Program-made: the position numbers and the translations under genes
In this document: piece after piece, positions 1 to 11,327 of the stretch
Layout: every line of letters starts with the position of its first letter
How positions within the stretch are numbered: the stretch's first letter is position 1
Notes under the pieces: model-generated
What the model was told of the DNA's origin: nothing
The model's input: only the letters and a program-made list of their open reading frames with translations
The model's database searches: none
DNA from: a virus
Lineage: Duplodnaviria; Heunggongvirae; Uroviricota; Caudoviricetes
Reading direction: 5' to 3' (one strand)
Length of the DNA stretch: 11,327 nucleotides
Virus record (IMG/VR): IMGVR_UViG_2778261591_000005
Location: 1-11,327 of that record

Positions 1-86
1 TACACCATTTGCTGGGGGTTATCTGATAGATGATTGTCTGCATGCCAACCTCATAAAACTTTCATCCACGGCAGTGGCACCACACT

Positions 87-203
87 TCAAACATTCGCTT
101 CACATCTTCTGTACAACACGGTGTTGTTTATGCAGCGAACAATTTTTACCGGGTAACCGGCACTGTCGGTATACAGTTGTCCCTGATTAATCAGAGCGAA
201 CAT
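87..203 (-). CDS. small hypothetical protein (38 aa from ATG at 203; frame is open upstream to 326)
   Basis: ORF track 87..326 minus. Internal ATG at 203..201 is preceded by AGGAG about 5 nt upstream (gcAGGAGaaaaaATG). The longer form would overlap the 3' end of the upstream ORF by about 90 nt. No recognisable domain. Confidence 0.25.
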   Translation of the reverse strand: MFALINQGQLYTDSAGYPVKIVRCINNTVLYRRCEANV

Positions 204-234
204 TTTTTCTCCTGCTCTCTGAATAGTGAGAACT

Positions 235-618
235 TCAGAGCCGTATGTTTGTAGCGGGTTCAATGCTGATAATTTCTGCTGAGATAAGCATCCCGGCAAG
301 CCAGAGTTCTCCGGACAGGTCTTCATCCTGGCATATCAGTTCGCCAATATTAATGGTGGCCATGATATCCGTTTCCCCTGTGCGCTCATCCAGGGCTTCT
401 TCATAAGGCAGCGTTGCGTACAGGCTTTCAATAGCGCAATTGATAACATCCAGTCCGGTCAGATTGCCGCCGACAGTAACTTCGAATGTTTCGCGGTATT
501 CCCATAGTCCGAAAGTTAATCGAACGGTTTGTTTTGCCATGCGTCCGCACGACGTCAGATTCGGGTCATAGTTCATTATTTGCGGTTGAGTATTCTGGTT
601 GTTCATCTGATTTTCCAT
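235..618 (-). CDS. hypothetical acidic protein, start uncertain
   Basis: ORF track 235..678 minus. The 678 start is GTG with no SD and overlaps the SPFH gene; in-frame ATG at 618 sits just after an intergenic hairpin; alternative ATGs at 606 and 540. Product is rich in E/D (…LPYEEALDERTGETDIMATINIGELICQDEDLSGELW…). No family recognised. Confidence 0.45.
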   Translation of the reverse strand: MENQMNNQNTQPQIMNYDPNLTSCGRMAKQTVRLTFGLWEYRETFEVTVGGNLTGLDVINCAIESLYATLPYEEALDERTGETDIMATINIGELICQDEDLSGELWLAGMLISAEIISIEPATNIRL

Positions 619-621
619 TAA

Positions 622-638
622 CCCGGCGGTTTGCCGGG
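622..638 (-). other. GC-rich intergenic stem-loop between the SPFH gene stop and the next ORF (no U-run, so not a classic terminator)
   Basis: Plus strand reads CCCGGC-ggttt-GCCGGG: 6-bp perfect stem, 5-nt loop, immediately downstream (in transcription sense) of the stop at 647..649. Confidence 0.35.
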
Positions 639-646
639 CGTGTAAG

Positions 647-1474
647 TTATTTAATCTGGATAAATGGTGTATTGGCACCGCTGGTCATGTATTGCGGCAG
701 AGTACCGTTCCACTTGTTGATGGCTTCCAGCTCCATGACGCCAGGGTTCTGGCGCAGAGCTTCACCGCGTAAACGAATAGCATCGGCCTCGGCCTGGGCT
801 TTTGTGCGAATCGCATCTGCCTGTCCGGCAGCTTCCGCGCGCAACATGTTAGCTTCCGCTTCGCGCTGTTTTACTTCCTGTTCGCGTTGCAGGGTTTTCT
901 GGTTCGCCGTGACTTTGGCATTAATGCTGTCGATAACGGTTGGCGGGTACTCCGGCTTACCCACATATGAGAGACTCATTACCTGAATACCGATGGGCGT
1001 CATTTCTGCCTGAATGTCTTTAAGAGCTGCATCCAGTAGTTCAGACTTCCCGCCGTCGATAAATTTGTCAGTGGTCATTTTGCTGGCCAGTCGATTGAGT
1101 GCGTCGGCGATCTTCTGGCGCAGGTCAGTATCGGTAATGTCATCCACGCCTTTGCGGTAGGTCTGAAACACCGTGGTAACTTTGGATGGATCAACTTTGT
1201 AGGCAACACCGATGTGATAGCCAATGGTTGTGCCGTCACTCATCTGGAAGCTGAACGGCTCATCGTAGGTCTTCATTTGTTTGAAGGTTGGGAAGATGTA
1301 AACTTCAGTGTTCCATCCCGTCCAGTAGCGCCCAACACCGACCACTTCACCGACGCCTTTATCGTCGCCAAGTTTGTTTACTTTGATGCCCACATTACCA
1401 GGCTCAACGCGATCGCAACCGACAAGGCCAATGGTCGGCAGAACAAGGGCTAAAGCAAAAAGTAATTTTTTCAT
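647..1474 (-). CDS. SPFH/band-7 (stomatin/prohibitin/HflKC-like) domain lipoprotein
   Basis: 275 aa. N-terminal signal peptide with lipobox (MKKLLFALALVLPTIGLVGC, Cys20). C-terminal Ala/Glu/Arg-rich helical segment typical of SPFH proteins (QREAEANMLRAEAAGQADAIRTKAQAEADAIRLRGEALRQNP). SD AAGGA 4 nt before ATG. Confidence 0.85.
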   Translation of the reverse strand: MKKLLFALALVLPTIGLVGCDRVEPGNVGIKVNKLGDDKGVGEVVGVGRYWTGWNTEVYIFPTFKQMKTYDEPFSFQMSDGTTIGYHIGVAYKVDPSKVTTVFQTYRKGVDDITDTDLRQKIADALNRLASKMTTDKFIDGGKSELLDAALKDIQAEMTPIGIQVMSLSYVGKPEYPPTVIDSINAKVTANQKTLQREQEVKQREAEANMLRAEAAGQADAIRTKAQAEADAIRLRGEALRQNPGVMELEAINKWNGTLPQYMTSGANTPFIQIK

Positions 1475-1659
1475 CTTTTATCCTTAGAAAAAGAAAGACC
1501 CTTATAAATGGCATAAATGCAGGGCGGGGTCAGACACGCCAGAGCAAAGCCAGAAATCACTGCTACCGTATCCTTCATTGATATGAGGGCCGGAACGATT
1601 AATCCGTAAATACATGTGATAATTGCCAGTGATATAACTATTCTGAAATAAATGTTCAT
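1471..1659 (-). CDS. small membrane protein (62 aa, two predicted TM helices), translationally coupled to the SPFH gene
   Basis: Hydrophobic sequence MNIYFRIVISLAIITCIYGLIVPALISM…VAVISGFALACLTPPCIYAIY. CAGGAGG just upstream of ATG at 1659. Its stop overlaps the SPFH start in an ATGA arrangement (1471..1474). Confidence 0.6.
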   Translation of the reverse strand: MNIYFRIVISLAIITCIYGLIVPALISMKDTVAVISGFALACLTPPCIYAIYKGLSFSKDKR

Positions 1660-1719
1660 GGTCCTCCTGATGTATGCGGCTTGCCTTATTTAATTGCGTC
1701 ATGGTTAATTTCGTTTACG

Positions 1720-2112
1720 TCAGAATGGTTTTGTTGCCATCAGTTCGTAATATCCGGCGCTCCATGTGTCATATTTTCTGAACCATTTTTCTGTATACTG
1801 TTTCCTGGCGATGAGTCTGCGCAGTCGTCTGATTGTTCGCTGGTGTGCGCGGGTATACTCTGTGGTTGATTCTCCACGTTTCCATATCTCATTCCCGTTG
1901 AAGATAAAACGCTTGTCAGGATAGCGTTGCCGGAATCCTGAACGTTCAAAAGCGCGGGTGGTCATAAAGAATGCCAGGTAACGAATTGCCGTTTTTCGGG
2001 TGAGGCATTTTTTTGTTCTTCCGTGGCGTGTTACAAAAAATAACGGGCCGACGGGTGTATCATGTTTCTGTAATGCCTGGTCAATGGCGCTGGCGGTGCG
2101 GTTGTCGATCAT
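1720..2112 (-). CDS. hypothetical basic protein (130 aa, Arg/Lys-rich; possibly nucleic-acid binding)
   Basis: GGGAGA SD about 9 nt before ATG at 2112. ATGA overlap with the stop of the upstream ORF 2109..2327. Basic composition (…RRLRRLIARKQYTEKWFRKY…). No family confidently recognised. Confidence 0.6.
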   Translation of the reverse strand: MIDNRTASAIDQALQKHDTPVGPLFFVTRHGRTKKCLTRKTAIRYLAFFMTTRAFERSGFRQRYPDKRFIFNGNEIWKRGESTTEYTRAHQRTIRRLRRLIARKQYTEKWFRKYDTWSAGYYELMATKPF

Positions 2113-2327
2113 TTCTTTATTTCTCCCGAATAACGTTCATGACTCATTACTTCCCAGTTCCGGCCGTCGCCTTTCGATAACAGCCGCCAGCAACGGTTAA
2201 CCTTCAGACTGAGATATCCGGTGCGCTGTATCCGATGCGGAAATATCCGTCGGCATCGGTACAACAACAGGACCTGCAATGCCTGCCGGTGGATCCGCTC
2301 AGGAATGCGTGTTGCTGTTAATGCCAC
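2109..2327 (-). CDS. small Arg-rich hypothetical protein (72 aa, GTG start)
   Basis: Strong SD (tCAGGAGGaaaccgGTG) and ATGA coupling to the downstream 130-aa gene. Composition is unusual (R/W/C-rich), so coding status is uncertain. Confidence 0.4.
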   Translation of the reverse strand: MALTATRIPERIHRQALQVLLLYRCRRIFPHRIQRTGYLSLKVNRCWRLLSKGDGRNWEVMSHERYSGEIKK

Positions 2328-2514
2328 CGGTTTCCTCCTGAGCAGGTGCTGTTATCTGATACCCCGCTCTTTCTGCCAGCCGTATGAATGTATCCATGCT
2401 GGCAATCAGCTCGCCATCGCGGACTTTGCAGACACCTGTGACTTGGCCATTTTCAATTGTCATAACGATCTGCACTTTTTCGCGCACAACAGATACAGGG
2501 GATAAATTAGCCAT
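2299..2514 (-). CDS. hypothetical protein (71 aa)
   Basis: GGAGG SD about 9 nt before ATG at 2514. Start overlaps the stop of the upstream gene by 8 nt (coupled). Confidence 0.55.
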   Translation of the reverse strand: MANLSPVSVVREKVQIVMTIENGQVTGVCKVRDGELIASMDTFIRLAERAGYQITAPAQEETGGINSNTHS

Positions 2515-2872
2515 CAGTTAATTCCTCCACTGGTATATTTTCTTTCGCGTAATCAATAACCTCTTGAAAAAGGTTGTCTATAATTAACTTTCCGGTTTCA
2601 GCCAGGTATTCAGTATGTTGATTAATCCCGATAGCATTCTGGTATGCAGTGTGGATTTCGGTTTCACCCTCCACCCGGCCCAATTCACCACGGGTAATAC
2701 CTTCGAAGCGTAACAGCAACTGGTTTATAAACTGTTCAGTTATTTCTATAGTCGCAATGTTCCCATCCGGAAGGTCAACAATAAGCAGATTACCACCTGT
2801 TTTACGTTTTATTCGATGGAGTGCCGCAACAGCTATACGGCGACGATATGTATTAATGGGTTCATATGCCAT
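2507..2872 (-). CDS. hypothetical protein with Arg-rich N-terminus; first gene of the leftward operon (lambda N-like position, function unproven)
   Basis: 121 aa. Residues 8-24 are TYRRRIAVAALHRIKRK, followed by an acidic C-terminal half. Located just left of a roughly 200-bp intergenic region. Confidence 0.6.
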   Translation of the reverse strand: MAYEPINTYRRRIAVAALHRIKRKTGGNLLIVDLPDGNIATIEITEQFINQLLLRFEGITRGELGRVEGETEIHTAYQNAIGINQHTEYLAETGKLIIDNLFQEVIDYAKENIPVEELTDG

Positions 2873-2875
2873 TTG

Positions 2876-2989
2876 TTATTTCCCGTATGCTTTACGCAGA
2901 AACAAGCAGGCAATATGCATGTAATTTTTACCGTGTTGTGCAATAAGACAGGCCGTTTTGTGTGATGCCTTATGTTTTATAAAAGTCAT
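2876..2989 (-). CDS. possible leader/upstream small ORF (37 aa, basic)
   Basis: Hand-translated (below the ORF-track size cut-off): MTFIKHKASHKTACLIAQHGKNYMHIACLFLRKAYGK. GGAGG SD 7 nt before ATG at 2989. Its stop TAA lies one codon before the ATG of the 121-aa gene. Confidence 0.25.
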   Translation of the reverse strand: MTFIKHKASHKTACLIAQHGKNYMHIACLFLRKAYGK

Positions 2990-3071
2990 AATAATGCCTC
3001 CAGTGGATTAAGTGTGTGATAATCCCCGGCGATTAAGCCGTAATATATTATTCGGAGATAACTTGTTTTAT

Positions 3072-3272
3072 TTAACTGGATAGTTCTTTTTCAGATGCTG
3101 CTTCAGCATAGCAACGTGCAAATTCAAGAACTTCATCACCTGTTCTTTTTATTGCGTCGTTGTCTGACATTTGTAGTACGATAACTGCGCATAATAAATT
3201 ATGGATATTGTTTGCAAAGGAATCCGGTGCTAGGCATAAGCCTTCATACTTATCATGGATATTGCCAGTCAT
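3072..3272 (-). CDS. small protein (66 aa), paralog of the N-terminal domain of the adjacent tandem-HTH protein
   Basis: ATG at 3272 with AAGGAG 8 nt upstream (the track's GTG at 3314 gives a longer form). Shares DSFA-NI-NLL-AV … G-EV-EF--YA--AAS with residues about 27-75 of the 230-aa protein. Confidence 0.6.
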   Translation of the reverse strand: MTGNIHDKYEGLCLAPDSFANNIHNLLCAVIVLQMSDNDAIKRTGDEVLEFARCYAEAASEKELSS

Positions 3273-3277
3273 TGTTG

Positions 3278-3970
3278 CTACTCCTTTGCTTCTGATTTTC
3301 CCGTTAACAACCACATCAGGTCACAATTAAGCGCACTGGCCAGTGGTACTATCTGATCAGCAGGAACTTCACAGGTGCCGCATTCCCAGTCGTTTATGGG
3401 GTCGCTGTAGGTGTGAATCATGCGTGCCAGGTCTGCTTCTGTTAAGCCCAGTTTTTTACGGGCGCTTTTGATGCGCGCACCAATATTTTCCACATGGACT
3501 TCAGGCGCATTTACGCGAATAACTGACTCGCTGTTTTTTTCACTCAGCAGAGAAAGCGGATCGCATCCCAGGACGTTTGCCAGGGGGGTAAGCATGCTGA
3601 TGGTTGGCTCGTACTCTCCACTCTCCCATTGCAGAATAATTTCTTCATCAAGATCGAGTAGTCTGGCAAGTTCGGTGGTCGTTAAGCCGCAGGCTTCGCG
3701 TTGAGTGCGAAGGTTAACCAGCCAGCTTTCAGGGAAGGATTGTTTTTGTTGTGCAGGAGAAGCCGCAGATAGAGCATATTCATGGATAAATTCCATTACC
3801 TCAATGCCCAGTTCCTTTGAGCGAGCACAATCCAGAAGATGGAATGTGCGTACAGCACTTAGCAAATTTGCAATATTTAATGCAAAGGAATCAAGTTCTA
3901 AGCCCTTAAGCGAAACACAGCCGCAGTTGATAAGATTAGTTGTTTCTGGAGTTGCGTTTAGTGTCTTCAT
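3278..3970 (-). CDS. transcriptional regulator with N-terminal domain of unknown function plus two tandem XRE-family HTH domains
   Basis: 230 aa. HTH1: LRTQREACGLTTTELARLLDLDEEIILQWESGEYEPTISMLTPLANVLGCDPLSLL. HTH2: IGARIKSARKKLGLTEADLARMIHTYSDPINDWECGTCEVPADQIVPLASALNCDLMWLLTG. Own promoter upstream and terminator-insulated from the cI-like gene. Confidence 0.8.
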   Translation of the reverse strand: MKTLNATPETTNLINCGCVSLKGLELDSFALNIANLLSAVRTFHLLDCARSKELGIEVMEFIHEYALSAASPAQQKQSFPESWLVNLRTQREACGLTTTELARLLDLDEEIILQWESGEYEPTISMLTPLANVLGCDPLSLLSEKNSESVIRVNAPEVHVENIGARIKSARKKLGLTEADLARMIHTYSDPINDWECGTCEVPADQIVPLASALNCDLMWLLTGKSEAKE

Positions 3971-4023
3971 ATATCCACCAACAATTTTAAATTGAATAAA
4001 ATCAAGTTATAATTGATGGTGCG

Positions 4024-4052
4024 ATATTATGCTTTGAAAAACAGGCTGTCAA
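4024..4052 (-). promoter_or_regulatory. sigma70-type promoter for the tandem-HTH gene
   Basis: Minus strand TTGACA (4052..4047), 17-nt spacer, TAATAT (4029..4024). Predicted start near 4017, giving a leader of about 47 nt to ATG at 3970. Confidence 0.5.
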
Positions 4053-4082
4053 GAAAAAATTGATATCGTATATTTTAGGCAG

Positions 4083-4103
4083 AAAAAAACGGGCAAAGCC
4101 CGT
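4083..4103 (-). terminator. intrinsic terminator after the cI-like gene
   Basis: Minus strand: stem CGGGC/GCCCG with 3-nt loop followed by a run of 6-7 U (plus strand AAAAAAA-CGGGC-AAA-GCCCG-T). Lies 13 nt beyond the cI-like stop. Confidence 0.55.
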
Positions 4104-4115
4104 TAAAATCAAAGA

Positions 4116-4805
4116 CTAACCAAATCTGTTTATATTGAATGGTACTGATGAGATCACTTTAGACTGGATATAAAGCAGAGCTAACCCCTCTTTTTCGATG
4201 CTCCATGGTTGATAATTAGGGTTATCAGATAACACCATGATTTTACTTCCAATTTTTTGAAGTCTTTTCACGTAGCATTCTCCATCAAAACAAAATGCAT
4301 AAATGCCATCGCCATCAAAATAAGTTACTGTCTTATCGAGAAAAAGAAGGTCGCCAGGTGAGATTGTGGGAGCCATACTGTCTCCTCTGGCGTTACCTAT
4401 TTCTATATTTTTGAATGCCCGATTTCCAACAAGACGTCGGGCATATTCAGGATCAAGTTCTATTGAGCGCACTACATCTATCAAGTCACCACGGACATGA
4501 GTTCCATCACCGCAACTAAACTCAACATCAAGGACATTAAACACGACGCTATCTGTTCTTGTCTGGAGTTTCTCTTGCGAGGAAAAGGTTGGTGAGGAGT
4601 CTTCGCCTAAGAACCAAGATTGTGGATAACCGCTAATCTCTGATAAATGCGCGAGCTTATCACTTCGTGGAAATGTTTTTCCTGTTGTCCAGTACTGCAC
4701 TGATTGCGCACTCACACCTAACTTGCGGGCCAGTTGAGCCTGAGTCCATCCTTTTGCTTTCAGCATCGCGGCTATTCGATTTTCCGTGTTTTTGACGTTC
4801 TTCAT
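4116..4805 (-). CDS. cI-like prophage repressor (N-terminal HTH, C-terminal S24/LexA-type autopeptidase domain)
   Basis: HTH: GWTQAQLARKLGVSAQSVQYW. S24 catalytic motifs: GDSMAPTISPGDLLFLDK (Ser) and YVKRL (Lys) about 36 aa later. Possible Cys-Gly cleavage site in FSCGDG. ATG at 4805 preferred over the TTG at 4811 used by the track. Confidence 0.9.
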   Translation of the reverse strand: MKNVKNTENRIAAMLKAKGWTQAQLARKLGVSAQSVQYWTTGKTFPRSDKLAHLSEISGYPQSWFLGEDSSPTFSSQEKLQTRTDSVVFNVLDVEFSCGDGTHVRGDLIDVVRSIELDPEYARRLVGNRAFKNIEIGNARGDSMAPTISPGDLLFLDKTVTYFDGDGIYAFCFDGECYVKRLQKIGSKIMVLSDNPNYQPWSIEKEGLALLYIQSKVISSVPFNINRFG

Positions 4806-4938
4806 GACCAAATCCTGTGGGTTTCTTTACAAGGATAAATCTTTACTTGATTTTAGTGTATTCGATCCTTTTGCAACTTGCATGTTAATTTAAACTTGAT
4901 GTATTCTTGATTTATAAAGTTAATATTGGTGATTTGTT
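4806..4938. promoter_or_regulatory. divergent promoter/operator region of the cI-like/Cro-like switch
   Basis: 133-bp AT-rich spacer between divergent genes. Three copies of an 11-bp motif: ACTTGATTTTA (4845..4855), ACTTGATGTAT (4894..4904), TCTTGATTTAT (4905..4915), the last two in tandem. Palindromic TGCAA-c-TTGCA at 4871..4881. Candidate rightward promoter TTAAAC-N17-TATAAA (4890..4918). Confidence 0.5.
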
Positions 4939-5211
4939 ATGAAAGGAAATGATTACGACAAACTTCGTACATTAATTGCGCAAAATGCCATAGCGCGAAA
5001 TCTTGGTGTGACGCCGCAAGCGGTGAATCAGTGGTTTTCAAAAAACACAATTCCTGCTCGTTTTGTTTTACGCGTATGTGAAGTAGTTGCATGGAAGGTC
5101 ACGCCACATGACTTAAGGCCAGATCTTTATCCTCACCCTGAAGATGGAATTCCTGATTCGTTACGCAAAATTTCAAATCCAAGCCTAGCGCACACGGAAG
5201 ATGGGAAGTGA
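4939..5211 (+). CDS. Cro-like HTH regulator (YdaS/DUF1019-type)
   Basis: 90 aa. HTH LGVTPQAVNQWFSKNTIP followed by the family-typical VTPHDLRPDLYP motif. Divergent from the cI-like gene. Confidence 0.85.
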   Translation: MKGNDYDKLRTLIAQNAIARNLGVTPQAVNQWFSKNTIPARFVLRVCEVVAWKVTPHDLRPDLYPHPEDGIPDSLRKISNPSLAHTEDGK

Positions 5212-5281
5212 TGGTGGTGATATGAGCGAAAAAATAACTATTAAATACGATGGGACAACCATTTCGATTGCCCCGATCACA

Positions 5282-5575
5282 TTAGCGTTCGCTGAGAAGT
5301 TGTTGGTAAGCCTTAAAGGATGCGAACTGCATTCTACCTTCGGCATTGATTCCAATGCCTTCGCTTGTACACCAAGCGATGAACTCGGCTGTATCCGCTT
5401 CAACTTTAATAACTCGTTGCCCGCCTCTTTCGACACGCTTAATCAATTTTTCAGCGTCGTGTTTCCACTCGGTGTAACTGTCGGAGAGCACATCAGCATC
5501 AGTAAAAATATTTTTGAGCTCATGATACTGAATCGCATCGCGAAACCAGAATAAACCAACGGCCTGAACTTTCAT
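5282..5575 (-). CDS. hypothetical protein (97 aa), orphan gene convergent with the Cro-like gene
   Basis: Strong SD (AAGGAGGttcgacATG). Protein-like composition (MKVQAVGLFWFRDAIQYHELKNIFTDADVLSDSYTEWKHDAEKLIKRVERGG…). Opposite orientation to the flanking rightward operon. Confidence 0.65.
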   Translation of the reverse strand: MKVQAVGLFWFRDAIQYHELKNIFTDADVLSDSYTEWKHDAEKLIKRVERGGQRVIKVEADTAEFIAWCTSEGIGINAEGRMQFASFKAYQQLLSER

Positions 5576-5688
5576 GTCGAACCTCCTTTGGTTCTTTTGT
5601 TTATAGGGATCAAAAGGATAACTGAAGGAAGGTTCGGCACCAATAAGTACGAATGTGCGGAATCTTAAAAGAATTTATCCGTAAGGAG

Positions 5689-6402
5689 ATGGCAGTGAAC
5701 ACCGCAATTTTTAACGGCAAAGCATCCATGACCAGCCTTGAAATCGCAGAGCTGGTGGGTAGTCAGCACTCAGATGTTAAACGTAGTATCGAACGCCTGG
5801 TTGCTAAAAACATCATCCGGAAACCGCCAATGGCTGTTTCCGAGAAAATCAATAACTTAGGTTTTAAAGTTCAATATGAGCATTACCTGTTTGAAGGAGA
5901 ACAAGGTAAACGCGACAGCATCATTGTCGTCGCTCAGCTCTGCCCTGAATTCACTGCTCGCCTGGTAGATCGCTGGCGCGAACTGGAAGAACAGATCCGT
6001 AAGCCAATGAGCGAAATCGAAATGGTTGCCGCGATGGCTCTTGAAGCTGTTCGTCAGCAGAAACGGATCACTCAGGTGGAAGAAAAAGTCAGCCACGTTG
6101 CCGAAACAGTTGAGCAAATCAAAAAGGGCACCATTCGTGAGGGCTATGCCGGATATCGCCAACTGAAAGCGAAAACCGGTTTGTCAGATGATAAATGCCG
6201 CAATCTGGTGAACGCTTATCAAATTCCTACAGACACCCATGAGTTCATGACGCCGGACGGATTGTTGTCACGTCGCGCAATTGTTGCCGTGGAACCTTTT
6301 ATGGCTGCTTTTTATCGGGTTATGGAGGAAGCAGAACCGCGAGGGACTCGCTGGTATCACCCGAAAATGGGGTTATTTCAGGTTATTGGTTGGCAGCGGT
6401 GA
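5689..6402 (+). CDS. Rha-family phage regulatory protein (paralog 1)
   Basis: N-terminal motif TSLEIAELVGSQHSDVKRSIERL matches the Rha-type signature. Start ambiguous: ATG 5653, ATG 5689 (AAGGAG directly abutting) or GTG 5695 (6-nt spacing). Confidence 0.7.
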   Translation: MAVNTAIFNGKASMTSLEIAELVGSQHSDVKRSIERLVAKNIIRKPPMAVSEKINNLGFKVQYEHYLFEGEQGKRDSIIVVAQLCPEFTARLVDRWRELEEQIRKPMSEIEMVAAMALEAVRQQKRITQVEEKVSHVAETVEQIKKGTIREGYAGYRQLKAKTGLSDDKCRNLVNAYQIPTDTHEFMTPDGLLSRRAIVAVEPFMAAFYRVMEEAEPRGTRWYHPKMGLFQVIGWQR

Positions 6403-6425
6403 AAAAAAGCCGGGAGTAACCCGGC
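6402..6425 (-). terminator. intrinsic terminator oriented for minus-strand transcription
   Basis: Minus strand: GCCGGG-uuacu-CCCGGC followed by UUUUUUU. On the plus strand the hairpin is preceded by A7 and not followed by a T-run, so it is unidirectional leftward. Confidence 0.55.
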
Positions 6426-6624
6426 TCACTCAACATCAATAACGGGGAGCTGTTTCGCATAAAACGGCTCCGAAACATCCAAGAACAGTTCTAAAGATAT
6501 CAGCAGCTATATGATCATTTCAAGACCAAATATTGATTCTGCAATTTCGGGACGTTACACTGTCTCTGCACCTTATAAAGCGGGTGCCGGGGGTCGCAGC
6601 CCGGAATTGTCAACGGCGATATAT

Positions 6625-6644
6625 GACGCGCCAGCGTCTTTTTT
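6625..6644 (+). terminator. candidate intrinsic terminator or attenuator on the plus strand between the two Rha-like genes
   Basis: GACGC-gcca-GCGTC followed by TTTTTT. Stem is short (5 bp) but GC-rich. Confidence 0.4.
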
Positions 6645-6810
6645 ATCGTCCGCGCTCACGCACGCCAGAATTATGGTGGGCTGGGCAGGGGAGCCGAAAG
6701 GCTCGCCGGTCTCCGTTGACGCCGGTACTGCGAACCCTGTTCAGTCTGCCACCAGTGAGTTTCGCAGCTCCGGTGGTGGAAGTTTTCCACAGTCAACGGA
6801 GGCTGCCATC

Positions 6811-7362
6811 ATGGCTACGATCCCAACCCTCACTCAACCTGAAATTGCCATCGTTGATGGTCAGGCTGTTACTTCATCCCTGGCTGTTGCCAATTTCTTC
6901 TCCAAGCGTCATGACGATGTACTGAAAAAGATCCGCACGCTTGAATGCTCCGCATCATTCACTGCCCGCAATTTTTCGGTGAGTGATTACACCGATTGCA
7001 CAGGCCGCAAACTACCTTGCTATCAAATCACCCGTGATGGCTTCGCGTTCCTTGCTATGGGCTTTACTGGCAAACGTGCAGCCCGGTTCAAAGAGGCATA
7101 CATCAACGCCTTTAACCAGATGGAGAAGAATTTATCTGGTGCTGACGCGGTTGATATGTCAGCTGTCGCACGAAACGCCAGAGGCGTATACCTGCATTTG
7201 CGTGAAATCCATCAAATCTGGACAAGCCAGCTTTATCCAATGCTTAAGGCCATTGAATCTCCGCTGGCTAGCAAACTGTACGACCGTGTTGGTGATGCTG
7301 TTTTTGGCGCTGCACTTGTTGATTCCAGGCTGAATGGTTCTGACAAGGAGGTTCGCCCATGA
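6811..7362 (+). CDS. Rha-family phage regulatory protein (paralog 2)
   Basis: Motif TSSLAVANFFSKRHDDVLKKIRTL. ATG at 6811 with GGAGG 9 nt upstream. The track's longer ORF from 6511 has a low-complexity G/S/A/P-rich N-terminal extension judged non-coding. Confidence 0.8.
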   Translation: MATIPTLTQPEIAIVDGQAVTSSLAVANFFSKRHDDVLKKIRTLECSASFTARNFSVSDYTDCTGRKLPCYQITRDGFAFLAMGFTGKRAARFKEAYINAFNQMEKNLSGADAVDMSAVARNARGVYLHLREIHQIWTSQLYPMLKAIESPLASKLYDRVGDAVFGAALVDSRLNGSDKEVRP

Positions 7363-7553
7363 TTAGTTACGAAATCATCATCTCCACTACGGAATACAGA
7401 AACGATGTATCAGTTCGCACGGATGTATCTGTCTGGCACCGTCGCTATAAATCCAGAAAAACAGCGGAACTGAAAGCGGCAGAGATGTGTGAAACCATCT
7501 CAATGAAAGGTAGCCCGGTTAAATACGTAACTACGGCGGAGGTGCGTCCATGA
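7359..7553 (+). CDS. hypothetical small protein (64 aa)
   Basis: AAGGAGG 8 nt upstream. ATGA overlap with the Rha paralog 2 stop. Confidence 0.55.
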   Translation: MISYEIIISTTEYRNDVSVRTDVSVWHRRYKSRKTAELKAAEMCETISMKGSPVKYVTTAEVRP

Positions 7554-7774
7554 TCCGCCACATCGTTAATTCCCTGTATCACCGATACAACCGTTGCCCC
7601 CGAGTGGGGCAGTGGTTCGCCACCAGCAACGGTCACGTTCTGCGGGTTTGCCTAGTCAACGCTGAAAGCCAGAAAGTCGTGTGCGAACTACAGGGGCGTA
7701 GCTACACCATCAGTTACCCTCTGGCGGTATTTCTGTCTGGAAAAATGTTTAAACGCCTGGGAGGTGTGTTATGA
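7550..7774 (+). CDS. hypothetical small protein (74 aa)
   Basis: GGAGG upstream. ATGA overlaps at both ends (coupled to the previous ORF and to the O-like gene). Confidence 0.55.
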   Translation: MIRHIVNSLYHRYNRCPRVGQWFATSNGHVLRVCLVNAESQKVVCELQGRSYTISYPLAVFLSGKMFKRLGGVL

Positions 7775-8580
7775 GCATGGAGCTGATGGTGAAAGCGATG
7801 AAAATTCGTGTGGGAAATCCGTTGCGAAAACTGGTTCTGATTAAGCTGGCTGATAATGCCAGCGATCAGGGCGAGTGCTGGCCCAGCTATCAGCATATTG
7901 CTGATCAGTGCGAGATTAGCAAACGTTCTGTGATGAATCATATTACGGCTCTTTGTGAATCTGGACTGGTAAAAAAAGTTTCCCGGAAAGGTGAAAAAGG
8001 TAACTCAAGTAATATCTATCTCCTTCATCTGGATGGTGCAGGAGATTCACTAGGGGGTAGTGCAAATAATTCACTATCTGGTGCAGCAAATTCACCAGGT
8101 AGTGCAGGAGTTGCACCAGGGGGTAGTGCAGGAGATTCACCCAGAACCAGTCACTCTTTTGAACCAGTCAAAGAACCAGTCAATGAATCAACTATTGGCG
8201 CATCCGCTGACGCGTCTGCACCAGCGCGTTCTGCCAGACAGGAATATTCACCGGAATTTGAACAGGCCTGGCAGGAATATCCCAAACGTGCTGGTGGTAA
8301 TTCCAAGTCAGCAGCCTTCAAAGCCTGGAAAGCCCGTATCAGGGAAGGTGTGACACCCGAAACCATGCTCAACGGTGTGAAACGCTATGCCGCCTGGGTG
8401 CGTGTCTCAGGAAATACCGGCACCCAGTTCGTGAAGCAGGCATCGACGTTCTTTGGCCCCGATCGGCACTTTGACGAATCCTGGCAACAGTCAGCAGCTC
8501 CCGGAGGTGGGCGGGGCAAAAGCCTCCCGATCTCGGGATTCAGTGAACAGGACTACGGCTCAACGAACTTCAACTGGTGA
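7771..8580 (+). CDS. phage replication initiator (lambda O-like; N-terminal HTH domain, low-complexity linker, C-terminal domain)
   Basis: N-terminal LRKLVLIKLADNASDQGECWPSYQHIADQCEISKRSVMNHITALCESGLV, a replisome-organiser type HTH. Central G/S/A-rich linker is encoded by iteron DNA. GGAGG SD. Followed by helicase loader and helicase genes. Confidence 0.85.
   Translation: MSMELMVKAMKIRVGNPLRKLVLIKLADNASDQGECWPSYQHIADQCEISKRSVMNHITALCESGLVKKVSRKGEKGNSSNIYLLHLDGAGDSLGGSANNSLSGAANSPGSAGVAPGGSAGDSPRTSHSFEPVKEPVNESTIGASADASAPARSARQEYSPEFEQAWQEYPKRAGGNSKSAAFKAWKARIREGVTPETMLNGVKRYAAWVRVSGNTGTQFVKQASTFFGPDRHFDESWQQSAAPGGGRGKSLPISGFSEQDYGSTNFNW
8034..8140. repeat. iterons (putative origin of replication) inside the O-like gene
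   Basis: Five roughly 20-bp direct repeats with 21-24 bp period (consensus about GGTAGTGCAGGAGATTCACC) at 8034, 8055, 8079, 8098 and 8121. Confidence 0.7.
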
Positions 8581-8597
8581 TTTTGTGGGGTGTGAAA

Positions 8598-9488
8598 ATG
8601 ATTAATTTCCTGAACAAACAACACATGCAACACGACAAAGCGCAATTACTCAACCGCAGTGCGGAGCTGGAGGAGGAGATGCAGTTTGCCCGTGCCGGGA
8701 AGCGTCCGTGGCGCTGTGAGCACTGGCTGGCAAGCGATGAGACTGCAGAGTGTGAGAAGCACGGAAAATATACTCGTCTGGTGTTGAAAGGGCCAGATAT
8801 TCGCGGAGAAACCATCAAACGGGTATCCGGATGTCCGCGCTGCATCGCAGAAGAACTGGATCACGTGCATGACGAATTACGCGCCCTGAAGGTTCGTGAA
8901 TTACTCGATCAGGCCGGTATTGCCCGCCGCTTTGAGAACTGCGAGTTTGAGAACTATCAGGCTGTGAATGCCGGGGCTCAGCGGAATCTTGATGCCTGCC
9001 AGCGTTATGTCGATGCCTGGAAGGATCACCTCGCGGCGGGTACCAGCATGATCATGATTGGCAATTGCGGTACCGGGAAAAATCACCTGGCTGTATCAAT
9101 GGCAAAAAATATTATTCGCCACCACCTGGCGACCGTCGAAATTACGGATGTTATGCGACTGACCCGCGCTGTGAAAAATACATGGCGTCACAATTCTGAA
9201 CGCACTGAAGATGAAGTTATTGACCATTTTGTATCACTGGACCTGCTCATCATTGATGAAGTCGGTGTTCAGTTTGGCACTCCTGCCGAGATAACCATCC
9301 TGCAGGAAATCATCAACGCGCGTTACGAAAGTATTCTGCCAACAATTCTGATCAGCAACCTGACGTTTGACCAGCTTAAGGAGTCCATTGGTGAGCGAAT
9401 TGTAGATCGCGTTACTGACGGCGGGCGTAACCGCCTGGTGTTTGGCTGGGAGAGCTACCGGGCAAATATCGGAGGTGTTGCCGCATGA
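8598..9488 (+). CDS. DnaC/IstB-like AAA+ helicase loader
   Basis: Walker A GNCGTGKNHLA, Walker B LLIIDEVG, sensor ISNLT. N-terminal region carries Cys/His pairs (CEH…CEKH…CPRC) suggesting a zinc-binding module. Start is ATG 8598 or GTG 8577 (overlapping the O-like stop). Confidence 0.85.
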   Translation: MINFLNKQHMQHDKAQLLNRSAELEEEMQFARAGKRPWRCEHWLASDETAECEKHGKYTRLVLKGPDIRGETIKRVSGCPRCIAEELDHVHDELRALKVRELLDQAGIARRFENCEFENYQAVNAGAQRNLDACQRYVDAWKDHLAAGTSMIMIGNCGTGKNHLAVSMAKNIIRHHLATVEITDVMRLTRAVKNTWRHNSERTEDEVIDHFVSLDLLIIDEVGVQFGTPAEITILQEIINARYESILPTILISNLTFDQLKESIGERIVDRVTDGGRNRLVFGWESYRANIGGVAA

Positions 9489-10885
9489 CCAGCCAGAACA
9501 ACCCGGCATGGCGTAACGATGACCTGGAAGGTGCGGTGATTGGCGCGTTTTTTCTGCGTGGGGCTGATCCGGAAGTGATGGATATTCTGGCCACGCTTCC
9601 GGCGGATGTATTTTTCGTGCGTCAGTACCGGGATATTTACGCGGGGATTTGCAGACAGGCCCGCGTATCCGGCGTCATTGACCCCGTGCTGCTGTGCAAT
9701 GAGATGCCGGAACTTGCCCCGGTGATTACCGACACCGGGCGCAAAACCTGGGTGAAGTCTTCACTGGAGCACTATGTTGCAGCGCTGCGACGCAATGCCG
9801 CACTGCGCGATGCAGAAAAAACACTGACTGAAGCATTACAGAATTTACGTGATGCACATACCTGCGAAGCGGCAGAAGATGCCCTGAAGGATGCGCAGAA
9901 CATGATGGCCTCACTGTCGACCGGAAAGGGCGTCATTCAGCCGGTTCACATTGATGATGTCCTTCCGGAAGTGGTCGACCGTGTTGAATGCCGCAATCAG
10001 GGACTGGAGAAATCCAGGGCGCTGATGACCGGTATTGATGAACTGGACGCAAAAACGGGCGGTATGGAGCCCGGAGACCTGGTATTCATTGCCGCCCGTC
10101 CTTCGATGGGGAAAACCGAACTTGCGCTGGACATCATCGACAAGGTGACTGAGCAGGGGCATGGCGTGCTTCTGTTCACCATGGAGATGGCGAACATCCA
10201 GATTGGTGAACGTATGGTGTCTGCTGCCGGTGGAATGCCGGTATCCCGTCTTAAGTCTGTTGCCCGTTTTGAAGATGAAGACTGGGCGCGTTTCTCACAG
10301 GGCGTGGGACGAATGACGGGGCGTAATATCTGGATGGTGGACCAGGCAAATCTGACCATTGATGAGATATGTGCAACCACGAGGTACCACCGGATGAAGC
10401 ATCCGGAAACGGCGCTGGTGGTGGTCGATTACCTCGGCCTGATTAAAACCCGCAGCACGGGGCGTCACGACCTTGCGGTGGGGGAAATCTCAAAGGGACT
10501 TAAAAGCCTGGCAAAATCCGGCGGTTTTCCGCTGATTGCTCTGAGCCAGCTCTCCCGCGGCGTGGAATCCAGACCCAATAAACGTCCCATGAACTCAGAC
10601 CTGAAAAACTCCGGGGAAATCGAGGCTGATGCCGACATCATTCTGATGCTTTACAGGGATGAGGTGTATAACCCGGATACACAGGCGAGAGGCATAGCAG
10701 AAATCAACATCACGAAACAGCGTAATGGCACGCTCGGGACCATTTACCGGCGTTTTCATAACGGACATTTTCTGCCTGTGGACCAGGAGAGTGCCCGGGT
10801 TCTTTCCACACCCATGACGCCGGGCAATCCGCGCAGATACAGCAATAACCGCATGTCGGGCAGTAAAGCGGAGCGTTTATTTTGA
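9485..10885 (+). CDS. DnaB-family replicative DNA helicase
   Basis: 466 aa. Walker A ARPSMGKT, Walker B VVVDYLGLI, ALSQLSR arginine-finger region, and the DnaB signature DLKNSGEIEADADIILMLYRDEVY. ATGA overlap with the loader gene. Confidence 0.92.
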   Translation: MTSQNNPAWRNDDLEGAVIGAFFLRGADPEVMDILATLPADVFFVRQYRDIYAGICRQARVSGVIDPVLLCNEMPELAPVITDTGRKTWVKSSLEHYVAALRRNAALRDAEKTLTEALQNLRDAHTCEAAEDALKDAQNMMASLSTGKGVIQPVHIDDVLPEVVDRVECRNQGLEKSRALMTGIDELDAKTGGMEPGDLVFIAARPSMGKTELALDIIDKVTEQGHGVLLFTMEMANIQIGERMVSAAGGMPVSRLKSVARFEDEDWARFSQGVGRMTGRNIWMVDQANLTIDEICATTRYHRMKHPETALVVVDYLGLIKTRSTGRHDLAVGEISKGLKSLAKSGGFPLIALSQLSRGVESRPNKRPMNSDLKNSGEIEADADIILMLYRDEVYNPDTQARGIAEINITKQRNGTLGTIYRRFHNGHFLPVDQESARVLSTPMTPGNPRRYSNNRMSGSKAERLF

Positions 10886-11139
10886 ATAACAGAACAGCCA
10901 CTGTTTCACCGGAACAACTTCGTCGCCAGGCGCAGGAGATGCTTCGTTGTGCTGAACAGATGGAAAAAATGAGCGTGGCAAAGGATACGCTCCGCAAGCA
11001 GCTTACTCCGGCGCTTCGTGATCTGCTGCAGGCAAAACACCGCACACAAAAGGCGGTGGATGAGCTGGTGGATTGCGTGGCGGAACTGGAAGGCAAGGTA
11101 AGCCAGTTTGAAACTCTGGTGAAGGAGTTTACTGCGTGA
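10882..11139 (+). CDS. hypothetical small coiled-coil protein (85 aa, TTG start overlapping the helicase stop)
   Basis: Helical and charged (…LRRQAQEMLRCAEQMEKM…VDELVDCVAELEGKVSQFETLVKEF). Internal ATG at 10939 is an alternative start. Confidence 0.45.
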   Translation: MNNRTATVSPEQLRRQAQEMLRCAEQMEKMSVAKDTLRKQLTPALRDLLQAKHRTQKAVDELVDCVAELEGKVSQFETLVKEFTA

Positions 11140-11190
11140 TGGCTGAATTTTTTCTCCTGTGTTCATGCAATATCGTTCGCTGAGGTGACC

Positions 11191-11327
11191 GTGAGAGCAT
11201 TGTTGACTCCTGAAATTGCCCCGCGAATGGGGATTGTATTGTTCAGACCCGGTTCAGAGCTGATGCCCCTGTTTATGCAGGGGCGTGTCCTGCTGGAGCC
11301 TGAGCCGGAACGTTATTCATCTTTCGC
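11191..11327 (+). CDS. possible 5' end of a further gene running off the window
   Basis: Frame opens at 11140 right after the stop of the 85-aa ORF and remains open to the window end (…VTVRALLTPEIAPRMGIVLFRPGSELMPLFMQGRVLLEPEPERYSSF). Candidate GTG at 11191 with GAGG upstream. Not in the ORF track because it is truncated. Confidence 0.2.
   Translation, partial: MRALLTPEIAPRMGIVLFRPGSELMPLFMQGRVLLEPEPERYSSF

Follow-up and report, generated by a model that had tools for sequence, protein, structure and literature searches.

Lambdoid phages carry small coupled accessory genes in their early operons, as in the ea/ral/kil/cIII region of the lambda PL operon and in the nin region, and the function of most genes in such arrays has not been assigned. 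Small basic proteins of the RelE/ParE fold also occur in prophages, as toxins of type II toxin-antitoxin (TA) systems of the RelBE/ParDE superfamily; PaaR2-PaaA2-ParE2 is a three-gene TA system of Escherichia coli O157:H7 prophages. A third point of reference is lambda N, an intrinsically disordered small basic protein, with its nut sites. Here we analyse an 11,327-nucleotide stretch of the tailed-phage record IMGVR_UViG_2778261591_000005 (Caudoviricetes; positions 1 to 11,327, referred to below as the window), which represents the early region of a lambdoid prophage of E. coli. Within its early-left (PL) operon lies a chain of small genes, here called s37, p121, p71, p72 and p130, which the original prediction had described as a possible N-type antiterminator gene and its followers behind a leader peptide. 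Its small genes form a widely conserved, translationally coupled chain, one polycistronic unit of the PL operon in temperate enterobacterial phages that include yecE-integrated prophages of E. coli, long-tailed Shiga toxin (Stx) phages, Salmonella Fels-1 and phi467. We favour, at about an even chance of being right, the reading that it is a translationally coupled accessory cassette with a TA-like core, gated at its first cistron.

Two sets of loci were compared. The loci fetched with p72 are the best 80 of 538 viral contigs encoding a p72 relative, a choice biased to close relatives, to which a few distant loci were added; those fetched with p121 come from 10 genomes of several genera and were searched with tblastn and profiles. 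The recurrent order is s37, an optional acidic protein of ~70 residues (acid70), p121, p71, p72, and then p130 or an unrelated 168-residue protein. Each of s37, p121, p71 and p72 is present in 80/80 of the p72-fetched loci, in constant order and with variable outer flanks, one p71 being a frame fusion, and the p121-fetched loci from Atlantibacter, Raoultella, Phytobacter and Citrobacter carry the same block. The order of the open reading frames (ORFs) was seen in ~100 loci across several enterobacterial genera, and that of the four-gene block is held at ~50% amino-acid identity between genera while the flanks change. The usual 3' neighbour of p72 is p130 (75/80 p72-fetched loci), replaced by the 168-residue protein in the other 5. 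Among annotated phages, Salmonella Fels-1 and Escherichia phage phi467 contain the cassette, always between cI and xis/int and with all genes labelled 'hypothetical'. A common variant, seen for instance in the Stx phages, consists of element-s37-p71'-p192, where the element is the RNA motif described below, and lacks both p121 and p72. The s37 region was found in 339/5426 complete E. coli genomes (~6%).

The genes are linked along the chain by overlaps of 1 to 29 nt, with junctions of the form TGATG, ATGA or a 29-nt overlap. The original prediction had given ATGA or 8-nt overlaps for the three genes that follow p121; the 8-nt overlap (p121/p71) and the ATGA junction (p72/p130) are present, and p71 and p72, the latter with a GTG start, instead overlap by 29 nt, the conserved tail of p71 (..SNT(H/N)S) being the other frame of the p72 N-terminus. 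The cassette resembles the lambda PL and nin arrays as a mosaic chain of small ORFs with ATGA/TGATG junctions, situated between the immunity region and xis/int, whose genes are swapped between phages. What sets it apart is that a defined block stays intact from genus to genus, with a conserved structured RNA element and a conserved first cistron of 35-37 residues at its head; no annotated equivalent exists, and no Rfam family covers the element.

This resemblance underlies the chief rival explanation, that the cassette is a mosaic of unrelated early-left accessory genes, with the order due to common descent and coupling, a non-toxic role for p72, and a hairpin that acts at the module boundary as a general signal for the processing or stability of mRNA. 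Genes are indeed lost and swapped: p71 is absent from L006 and L216-218, p121 from L219, and p72 from L007, L011 and Fels-1, the Stx-phage variant retains only s37-p71'-p192, and p168 stands for p130 in some loci. Clean deletions could come about through the similar GGNGGNATTAAC motifs at the junctions, and no defence or TA model matches any of the partners. Against these observations stand the conservation of the four-gene order across genera despite changing flanks, the constant company of an acidic partner for p72 in the loci examined, and a complementarity of basic and acidic charge that suits binding partners. We consider this rival a serious possibility, though clearly less probable than a cassette with a TA-like core.

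We also note how such losses could arise. Similar motifs are situated on the minus strand at the p121/p71 junction (2500-2540) and the p71/p72 junction (2290-2350), GGAGGAATTAAC and GGTGGCATTAAC, respectively, so that recombination between them would delete p71 cleanly. A deletion of this kind fits the fusion of the p121 and p72 junctions in L006 (4300-4380) and in L216-218 (L216 2660-3222). A database protein of 196 residues (P0103) begins with ~86 N-terminal residues of a p121 homologue and continues with the C-terminal part of the 168-residue protein, a fusion created by a deletion that removes p71 and p72.

The first cistron, s37, is on the evidence of its sequence a genuine small protein under purifying selection. 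As originally described, it is preceded by a strong Shine-Dalgarno (SD) sequence, GGAGG 8 nt before the ATG, and its TAA stop lies 3 nt ahead of the p121 ATG. The frame is intact in every locus examined, open for 35-37 codons between the same start and stop, with the ATG behind a purine-rich SD; the length differences among subtypes are in-frame. The consensus is M(T/S)F(I/L)KD..A(Y/H)K(T/S)A.L....G....IA.L(F/Y)LRKAYG(R/K). Pairwise pN/pS is ~0.37, the entropy at the three codon positions of the ungapped C-terminal block is 0.66/0.56/1.29 bits, and arginine codons switch between CGN (CGT) and AGR (AGA). No annotation of s37 exists in its RefSeq relatives, and a query with a 43-residue in-frame extension found only 2 unnamed clusters of related proteins in a database of 5.8 billion proteins.

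The last codons of s37 double as the ribosome-binding site of the next gene. In the window the end TAC GGG AAA TAA carries an SD-like GGGA; across loci the codons are TAY GGG followed by AGG or AAA, the stop and 2-4 nt to the next ATG, which together provide SD and spacer. This arrangement is kept whichever gene follows, be it acid70, p121 or p71, and the expected coupling of the 37-residue ORF to its downstream neighbour is thereby borne out. The role of regulatory leader peptide for p121, by contrast, was considered and rejected, because 27/80 and 6/9 loci have a further gene placed between the two and because the element-s37-p71'-p192 variant has s37 without p121; the peptide sequence itself is constrained, and s37 is separable from p121.

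In loci of the Citrobacter type (L007-L009, L055, L062, L064, L079, L084-L086 and L092), an extra ORF of ~92-98 residues (MQMNI...) is present just upstream of s37. It ends in a run of 7-11 G that doubles as the SD of s37, and the length of the run decides whether this ORF stops or fuses in frame to s37 to give a 131-residue product. The variable run is either a homopolymer assembly error or slippage-prone variation.

Upstream of s37 lies a gap, 2990..3071, of 82 bp rather than the roughly 200 bp first estimated, and it contains the conserved leader element, a hairpin with a tail. The stem has 4 bp, CGGC/GCCG, with 3037..3040 paired to 3027..3030 and a loop at 3031..3036, and the hairpin is situated 38 nt upstream of the s37 start. 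The tail reads GGGGAUU..CA..CUUAAU in the window and GGGGA(U/A)U..(U)GCA(A/C)CCU.AA across loci. A GC-rich near-palindrome, ATAATC-cccggc-GATTAA, had been pointed out here; it exists, at 3019..3036, and overlaps the hairpin, but the conserved pairing is the inner CGGC/GCCG, and the outer arms TAATC/GATTA are lineage-specific, the left one being the variable loop.

Evidence for the stem comes from an RNAalifold consensus of the sequence upstream of s37 in 27 distinct loci. The stem is closed by an invariant C-G, and compensatory changes are seen in 3/4 pairs, with the variants CGGC/GCCG, CACC/GGTG, CGCC/GGCG and CAGG/CCTG in addition to G.U variants. Pairing holds in 97.2% of alignment cells, compared with 80.1 +/- 2.3% after shuffling and 25-61% when the partner is slid; double changes number 18 cells against 5.7 +/- 1.7, and the covariation score is 0.591 against 0.261, a value of 0.591 being reached in 0/500 shuffles. 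The 10 G.U against 2 A.C cells, which are not phylogenetically independent, favour pairing on the sense strand, that of the leftward transcript. A covariance model (R1) finds a single copy in the window (50.9 bits, E 3e-13; next best 10 bits). Exactly one sense-strand copy is present in 82/94 loci, always just 5' of the first cassette gene; distant loci also carry it, and a DNA-pattern search returned 10 true matches with s37 as the next gene in 10/10. The element and s37 co-occur in every locus, including cassettes without p121, and an extra ORF stands between them in some loci. An Rfam scan of the whole window gave no family at this position, the only hits being isrK and C4 elsewhere. No consensus emerged for a second hairpin or an SD-sequestering helix downstream of the stem, the individual folds differing between lineages.

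Given the covariation, this conserved hairpin probably acts at the RNA level. A promoter was considered and set aside, as no sigma-70-like hexamers occur at consistent spacing and the loop, which would be the -35 site, is not conserved. An antisense terminator is disfavoured, since the G.U pairs become A.C on the other strand.

Translational operators are known for phage coat and RegA-type repressors, and a cassette protein, s37 or p121 through its arginine-rich helix, may likewise bind the hairpin and autoregulate translation or stability of the mRNA. The compensatory changes, the sense-strand G.U bias and the position of the hairpin ahead of the s37 start are consistent with this proposal, as are the joint occurrence of the element with the basic s37 (pI 10.0) and the invariance of R10, R12 and R23 of p121 even in distant relatives. 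Neither s37 nor p121 matches an RNA-binding family or fold, however, the loop sequence is variable, the element also occurs without p121, and in some loci another ORF separates it from s37. We regard such autoregulation, which would be compatible with a TA-like core, as unlikely. If any cassette protein is linked to the element, s37 is likelier than p121, because the element occurs with s37 even where p121 is absent.

The arginine-rich start of p121 noted in the original prediction is confirmed: the motif TYRRRIAVAALHRIKRK is present, and R10, R12 and R23 are invariant in the family. Residues 1-30 form an Arg/Lys-rich helix with a pI of 11.5. The family is tiny, with 56 representatives among 1.84 billion proteins in a deep profile search, and consists of stand-alone proteins of ~115-125 residues; one match was a spurious 1441-residue TPR-like repeat protein and one a deletion fusion. 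Searches of Pfam (E <= 0.1), NCBIfam and PADLOC gave no match, and the sole PHROG, 1737, is not an N family. The AlphaFold2 (AF2) model of p121 (pLDDT 86.8, pTM 0.78) is built from four long helices, with one beta-hairpin after the first of them and a second after the third, and the basic helix sits within the predicted fold. According to the model, the arginine-rich helix is a conserved part of a folded protein and not a disordered RNA-binding arm of the lambda N type.

The C-terminus of p121 differs between the window and its relatives. An A4 run at 2538..2541, where the relatives have A5, shifts the last ~10 residues, so that the protein ends ...KENIPVEELTDG in place of the family ending ...KEKYxSGGIN, and the TGATG junction to p71 becomes the 8-nt overlap peculiar to the window. 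The short run may reflect natural variation or a mistake in sequencing the homopolymer. Another 1-nt deletion near this run, with a similar outcome, is seen in L030.

These results bear directly on the proposal that p121 is an N-like processive antiterminator, whose arginine-rich motif would act on a nut-like hairpin with the 37-residue ORF as leader peptide. Three observations speak for it, the first two being points of likeness to lambda N and nut: an arginine-rich helix is conserved near the N-terminus of an early-left protein of ~120 residues, the transcript has a small conserved RNA hairpin farther upstream, and the related phages inspected have no annotated N gene. The remaining evidence speaks against it. 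p121 is predicted to be folded, is acidic and is unrelated to N in sequence. Counted from the PL-like promoter it is the fourth ORF, the first being a 230-residue double helix-turn-helix (HTH) protein, so that the supposed N-like position is not promoter-proximal. The hairpin has a variable loop and is a single copy in 11.3 kb, a span that includes the cro-to-dnaB operon, ~1 kb downstream of the PL-like promoter; it precedes its conserved linear motif, the reverse of the boxA-boxB order, and is retained in cassettes without p121. The search for boxA-like sequences that had been suggested gave 6 matches against 7.9 expected by chance, none near the hairpin. Of the two terminators put forward as read-through targets, 4083..4103 corresponds to the cI terminator upstream of PL and 6625..6644 to the 3' hairpin of isrK in the rightward operon, and no minus-strand intrinsic terminator is predicted between 4088 and 1400, that is, downstream in the leftward operon. 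Together with a supposed leader ORF that is a conserved protein separable from p121, these findings make an N-like role very improbable.

The original prediction missed the identity of p72. This toxin-like protein of the RelE/ParE superfamily matches Pfam PF24732 ParE_like (ParE-like toxin domain) with E 2.2e-16 and 60 bits against a cut-off of 24.4 bits, and is named 'ParE family toxin-like protein' in RefSeq. Its AF2 model (pLDDT 91.4) has the topology b-a-b-b-b-a, and the top Foldseek matches are mostly YoeB, YafQ, HigB, RelK, GraT and ParE2 (TM 0.45-0.58), the last from the ParE2-PaaA2 structure. The conserved residues are R46, R48, H63, E64 and Y66; by analogy only, we infer that this set may lie nearer to the basic/His/Tyr constellation of the ribosome-dependent RNases of the superfamily than to ParE. 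Literature searches for PF24732 or 'ParE family toxin-like' found no papers, and those for ParE-like proteins in prophages nothing relevant. p121, p71, p72 and p130 gave nothing meaningful against PDB chains in single-sequence or profile searches.

In most loci p72 is accompanied by both p121 and p71. It has p121 only in L006 (Phytobacter) and the distant L216-218, where p121 directly abuts p72, and p71 without p121 in L219 (Lelliottia). No locus out of ~100, a sample weighted to close relatives, has p72 without any acidic partner, and no single partner is obligate; conversely, L007, L011, Fels-1 and the Stx-phage variant have p121 and/or p71 but no p72. Such an asymmetry, together with the charge complementarity, is the pattern expected of a toxin/antitoxin relation. 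As in TA systems of the RelBE/ParDE type, p72 is situated directly behind a small acidic gene that it overlaps in a multi-gene unit, and it is never seen without an acidic partner, while the partners occur alone. The differences are that either partner can be absent, that neither p71 nor p121 belongs to a known antitoxin family or fold, that the cassette has no internal HTH regulator and no detectable promoter of its own, and that p72, whose toxin role is predicted, has 72 residues and one N-terminal helix, not two.

Our preferred reading, the coupled cassette with a TA-like core, may be put as follows. Because the SD lies inside the last codons of s37 and the later genes overlap, the level at which the entire chain is expressed is probably determined by ribosomes entering at s37, which follows the leader element. 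The basic p72 would be the toxin-like component and likely inhibits translation or gyrase, and the acidic p121 and/or p71 would most likely bind it and neutralise or regulate it. As no promoter of the cassette's own is evident, expression probably occurs on prophage induction and not in the lysogen, and the induced cassette may then act on host translation, DNA topology or the exclusion of other phages.

Several observations weigh against this reading. The Foldseek E-values of p72 are weak (0.08-1), and p72 is without the second N-terminal helix of canonical toxins. p121 and p71 have no match among known antitoxin families, folds or solved structures, and p71 has no relatives in Pfam or the PDB even with a profile search; PADLOC and NCBIfam searches with the cassette proteins returned no defence system, TA system or named family. 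Since neither acidic partner is obligate, p72 may be non-toxic altogether, and with a survey of the closest 80/538 contigs and a few distant ones, the lack of counter-examples is no proof. A consensus scan of the minus strand of 2990..3071 found no sigma-70-like site, although so crude a scan may miss a weak or atypical promoter, and in many relatives the cassette directly adjoins an upstream ORF; the cassette is probably not expressed in the lysogen, and in this it departs from a classical autoregulated addiction module. Finally, the stem of the element has only 4 bp, and the leader folds are not unusually stable (z -3.6 to +1.5). A bolder combination would have an undescribed RNA-protein pair, the element with s37 or p121, control translation, stability or elongation of the early-left operon in N-less lambdoid phages and so gate a multi-partner RelE/ParE-type toxin neutralised by either of the two unrelated acidic proteins; we regard this as a long shot.

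The coordinates of the cassette and of the signals around it are collected in Table 1.

Table 1. Features of the early-left operon and its control region in the window.
Feature	Position	Strand	Remarks
p130, very basic (pI 10.8)	1720..2112	minus	PHROG 1886 'unknown function', E 1e-59
p72, basic (pI 11.1), minimal RelE/ParE-fold toxin-like protein	2109..2327	minus	GTG start (2327) behind AGGAGG
p71, acidic (pI 5.2)	2299..2514	minus	PHROG 340 'unknown function', E 6e-24
p121, acidic (pI 4.9)	2507..2872	minus	PHROG 1737 'unknown function'; basic N-terminal helix; frameshifted C-terminal tail in this copy
s37, 37-residue basic protein (pI 10.0)	2876..2989	minus	conserved, unannotated; first cistron
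Conserved cassette-leader element	3001..3047	minus	hairpin + tail; covariance model R1
Two ATCAA-N7-TTGAT operator-like palindromes	4001..4017 and 4048..4064	minus	flank PL-like promoter
PL-like promoter, TTGACA-17-TAATAT	4052..4024	minus	consensus match only; just left of cI terminator
cI terminator	4104..4088	minus	terminator scan; upstream of PL
CI repressor, S24/LexA-type	4116..4811	minus	

The half-sites of the two palindromes recur in the cI-cro intergenic region (~4838-4862; repeats D17 and I1), and these sites, taken with the promoter-like sequence, probably represent OL/PL and OR. The opposite strand carries cro, a Rha-type antirepressor gene and O-, DnaC- and DnaB-like replication genes. 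The leftward operon runs in the order 230-residue double-HTH protein, 80-residue protein, 82-bp gap, flagged chain, small membrane protein, SPFH lipoprotein and DUF5406, and in relatives it continues into xis and int. Prophages integrated at yecE in E. coli of clinical and bovine origin carry DNA 96.9% identical to the window; what the window shares with the long-tailed Stx phages of O145:H28 is the flanking genes and not the central cassette.

Some neighbouring genes and RNAs are of interest in their own right. The 80-residue protein (3072-3314, minus), which has 66 residues in RefSeq, is paralogous to the non-HTH, N-terminal portion of the 230-residue regulator next to it (3278-3970, minus), with ~47% identity over 44 residues; it may act on that double-HTH, 'CII-like' regulator as a truncated decoy or as a modulator. 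On the other side of the cassette (647-1659, minus), the gene for a 62-residue membrane protein (PHROG 1130) runs into the start of one for a 275-residue SPFH/Band-7 lipoprotein (PF01145, E 8e-31). The two genes resemble an NfeD-SPFH-like pair and may have been carried in as a moron; in some relatives the pair is swapped for a 192-residue protein. In the rightward operon, Rfam identifies the Hfq-binding small RNA isrK at 6568-6644 (+; 58.7 bits, E 9e-11) and the antisense RNA C4 at 6669-6756 (+; 78.8 bits, E 1.6e-14), at or inside the 5' part of a 283-residue ORF of the 'ash family' (6511..7362) that lies beyond the Rha-type antirepressor gene in the downstream direction. This region looks like an RNA-controlled immunity/anti-repressor module of the P1/P7 or Gifsy-1 type. 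Predicted pairing of the window's own isrK or C4 RNA with the s37 leader gave nothing above background (z -1.0 and -0.7, respectively).

Part of this picture is already known: both Pfam and RefSeq give p72 its ParE-like label, and small coupled ORFs strung in a chain are nothing unusual in the early operons of lambdoid phages. The conserved unannotated gene s37, the covarying leader hairpin and the fixed block with two alternative acidic partners appear not to have been described so far. Four of the five cassette proteins are labelled 'hypothetical', the first gene is unannotated and the leader RNA motif has no Rfam family, so that standard annotation misses both a conserved gene of 35-37 codons and a structured element of 47 nt. 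The result would be an ordinary one if the cassette genes are unrelated accessory genes. The cassette is common, with at least 538 viral contigs carrying a p72 relative and its s37 region in ~6% of complete E. coli genomes, and the carriers of that region include prophages close to the long-tailed Stx phages of O145, O157 and O103 strains. The type of early region influences Stx2 production (bioRxiv 10.1101/2024.03.06.583675). Should p72 prove to be an active toxin of the RelE/ParE type that is expressed from PL on induction, it could affect host shut-off, the efficiency of induction or the outcome of superinfection in these prophages.

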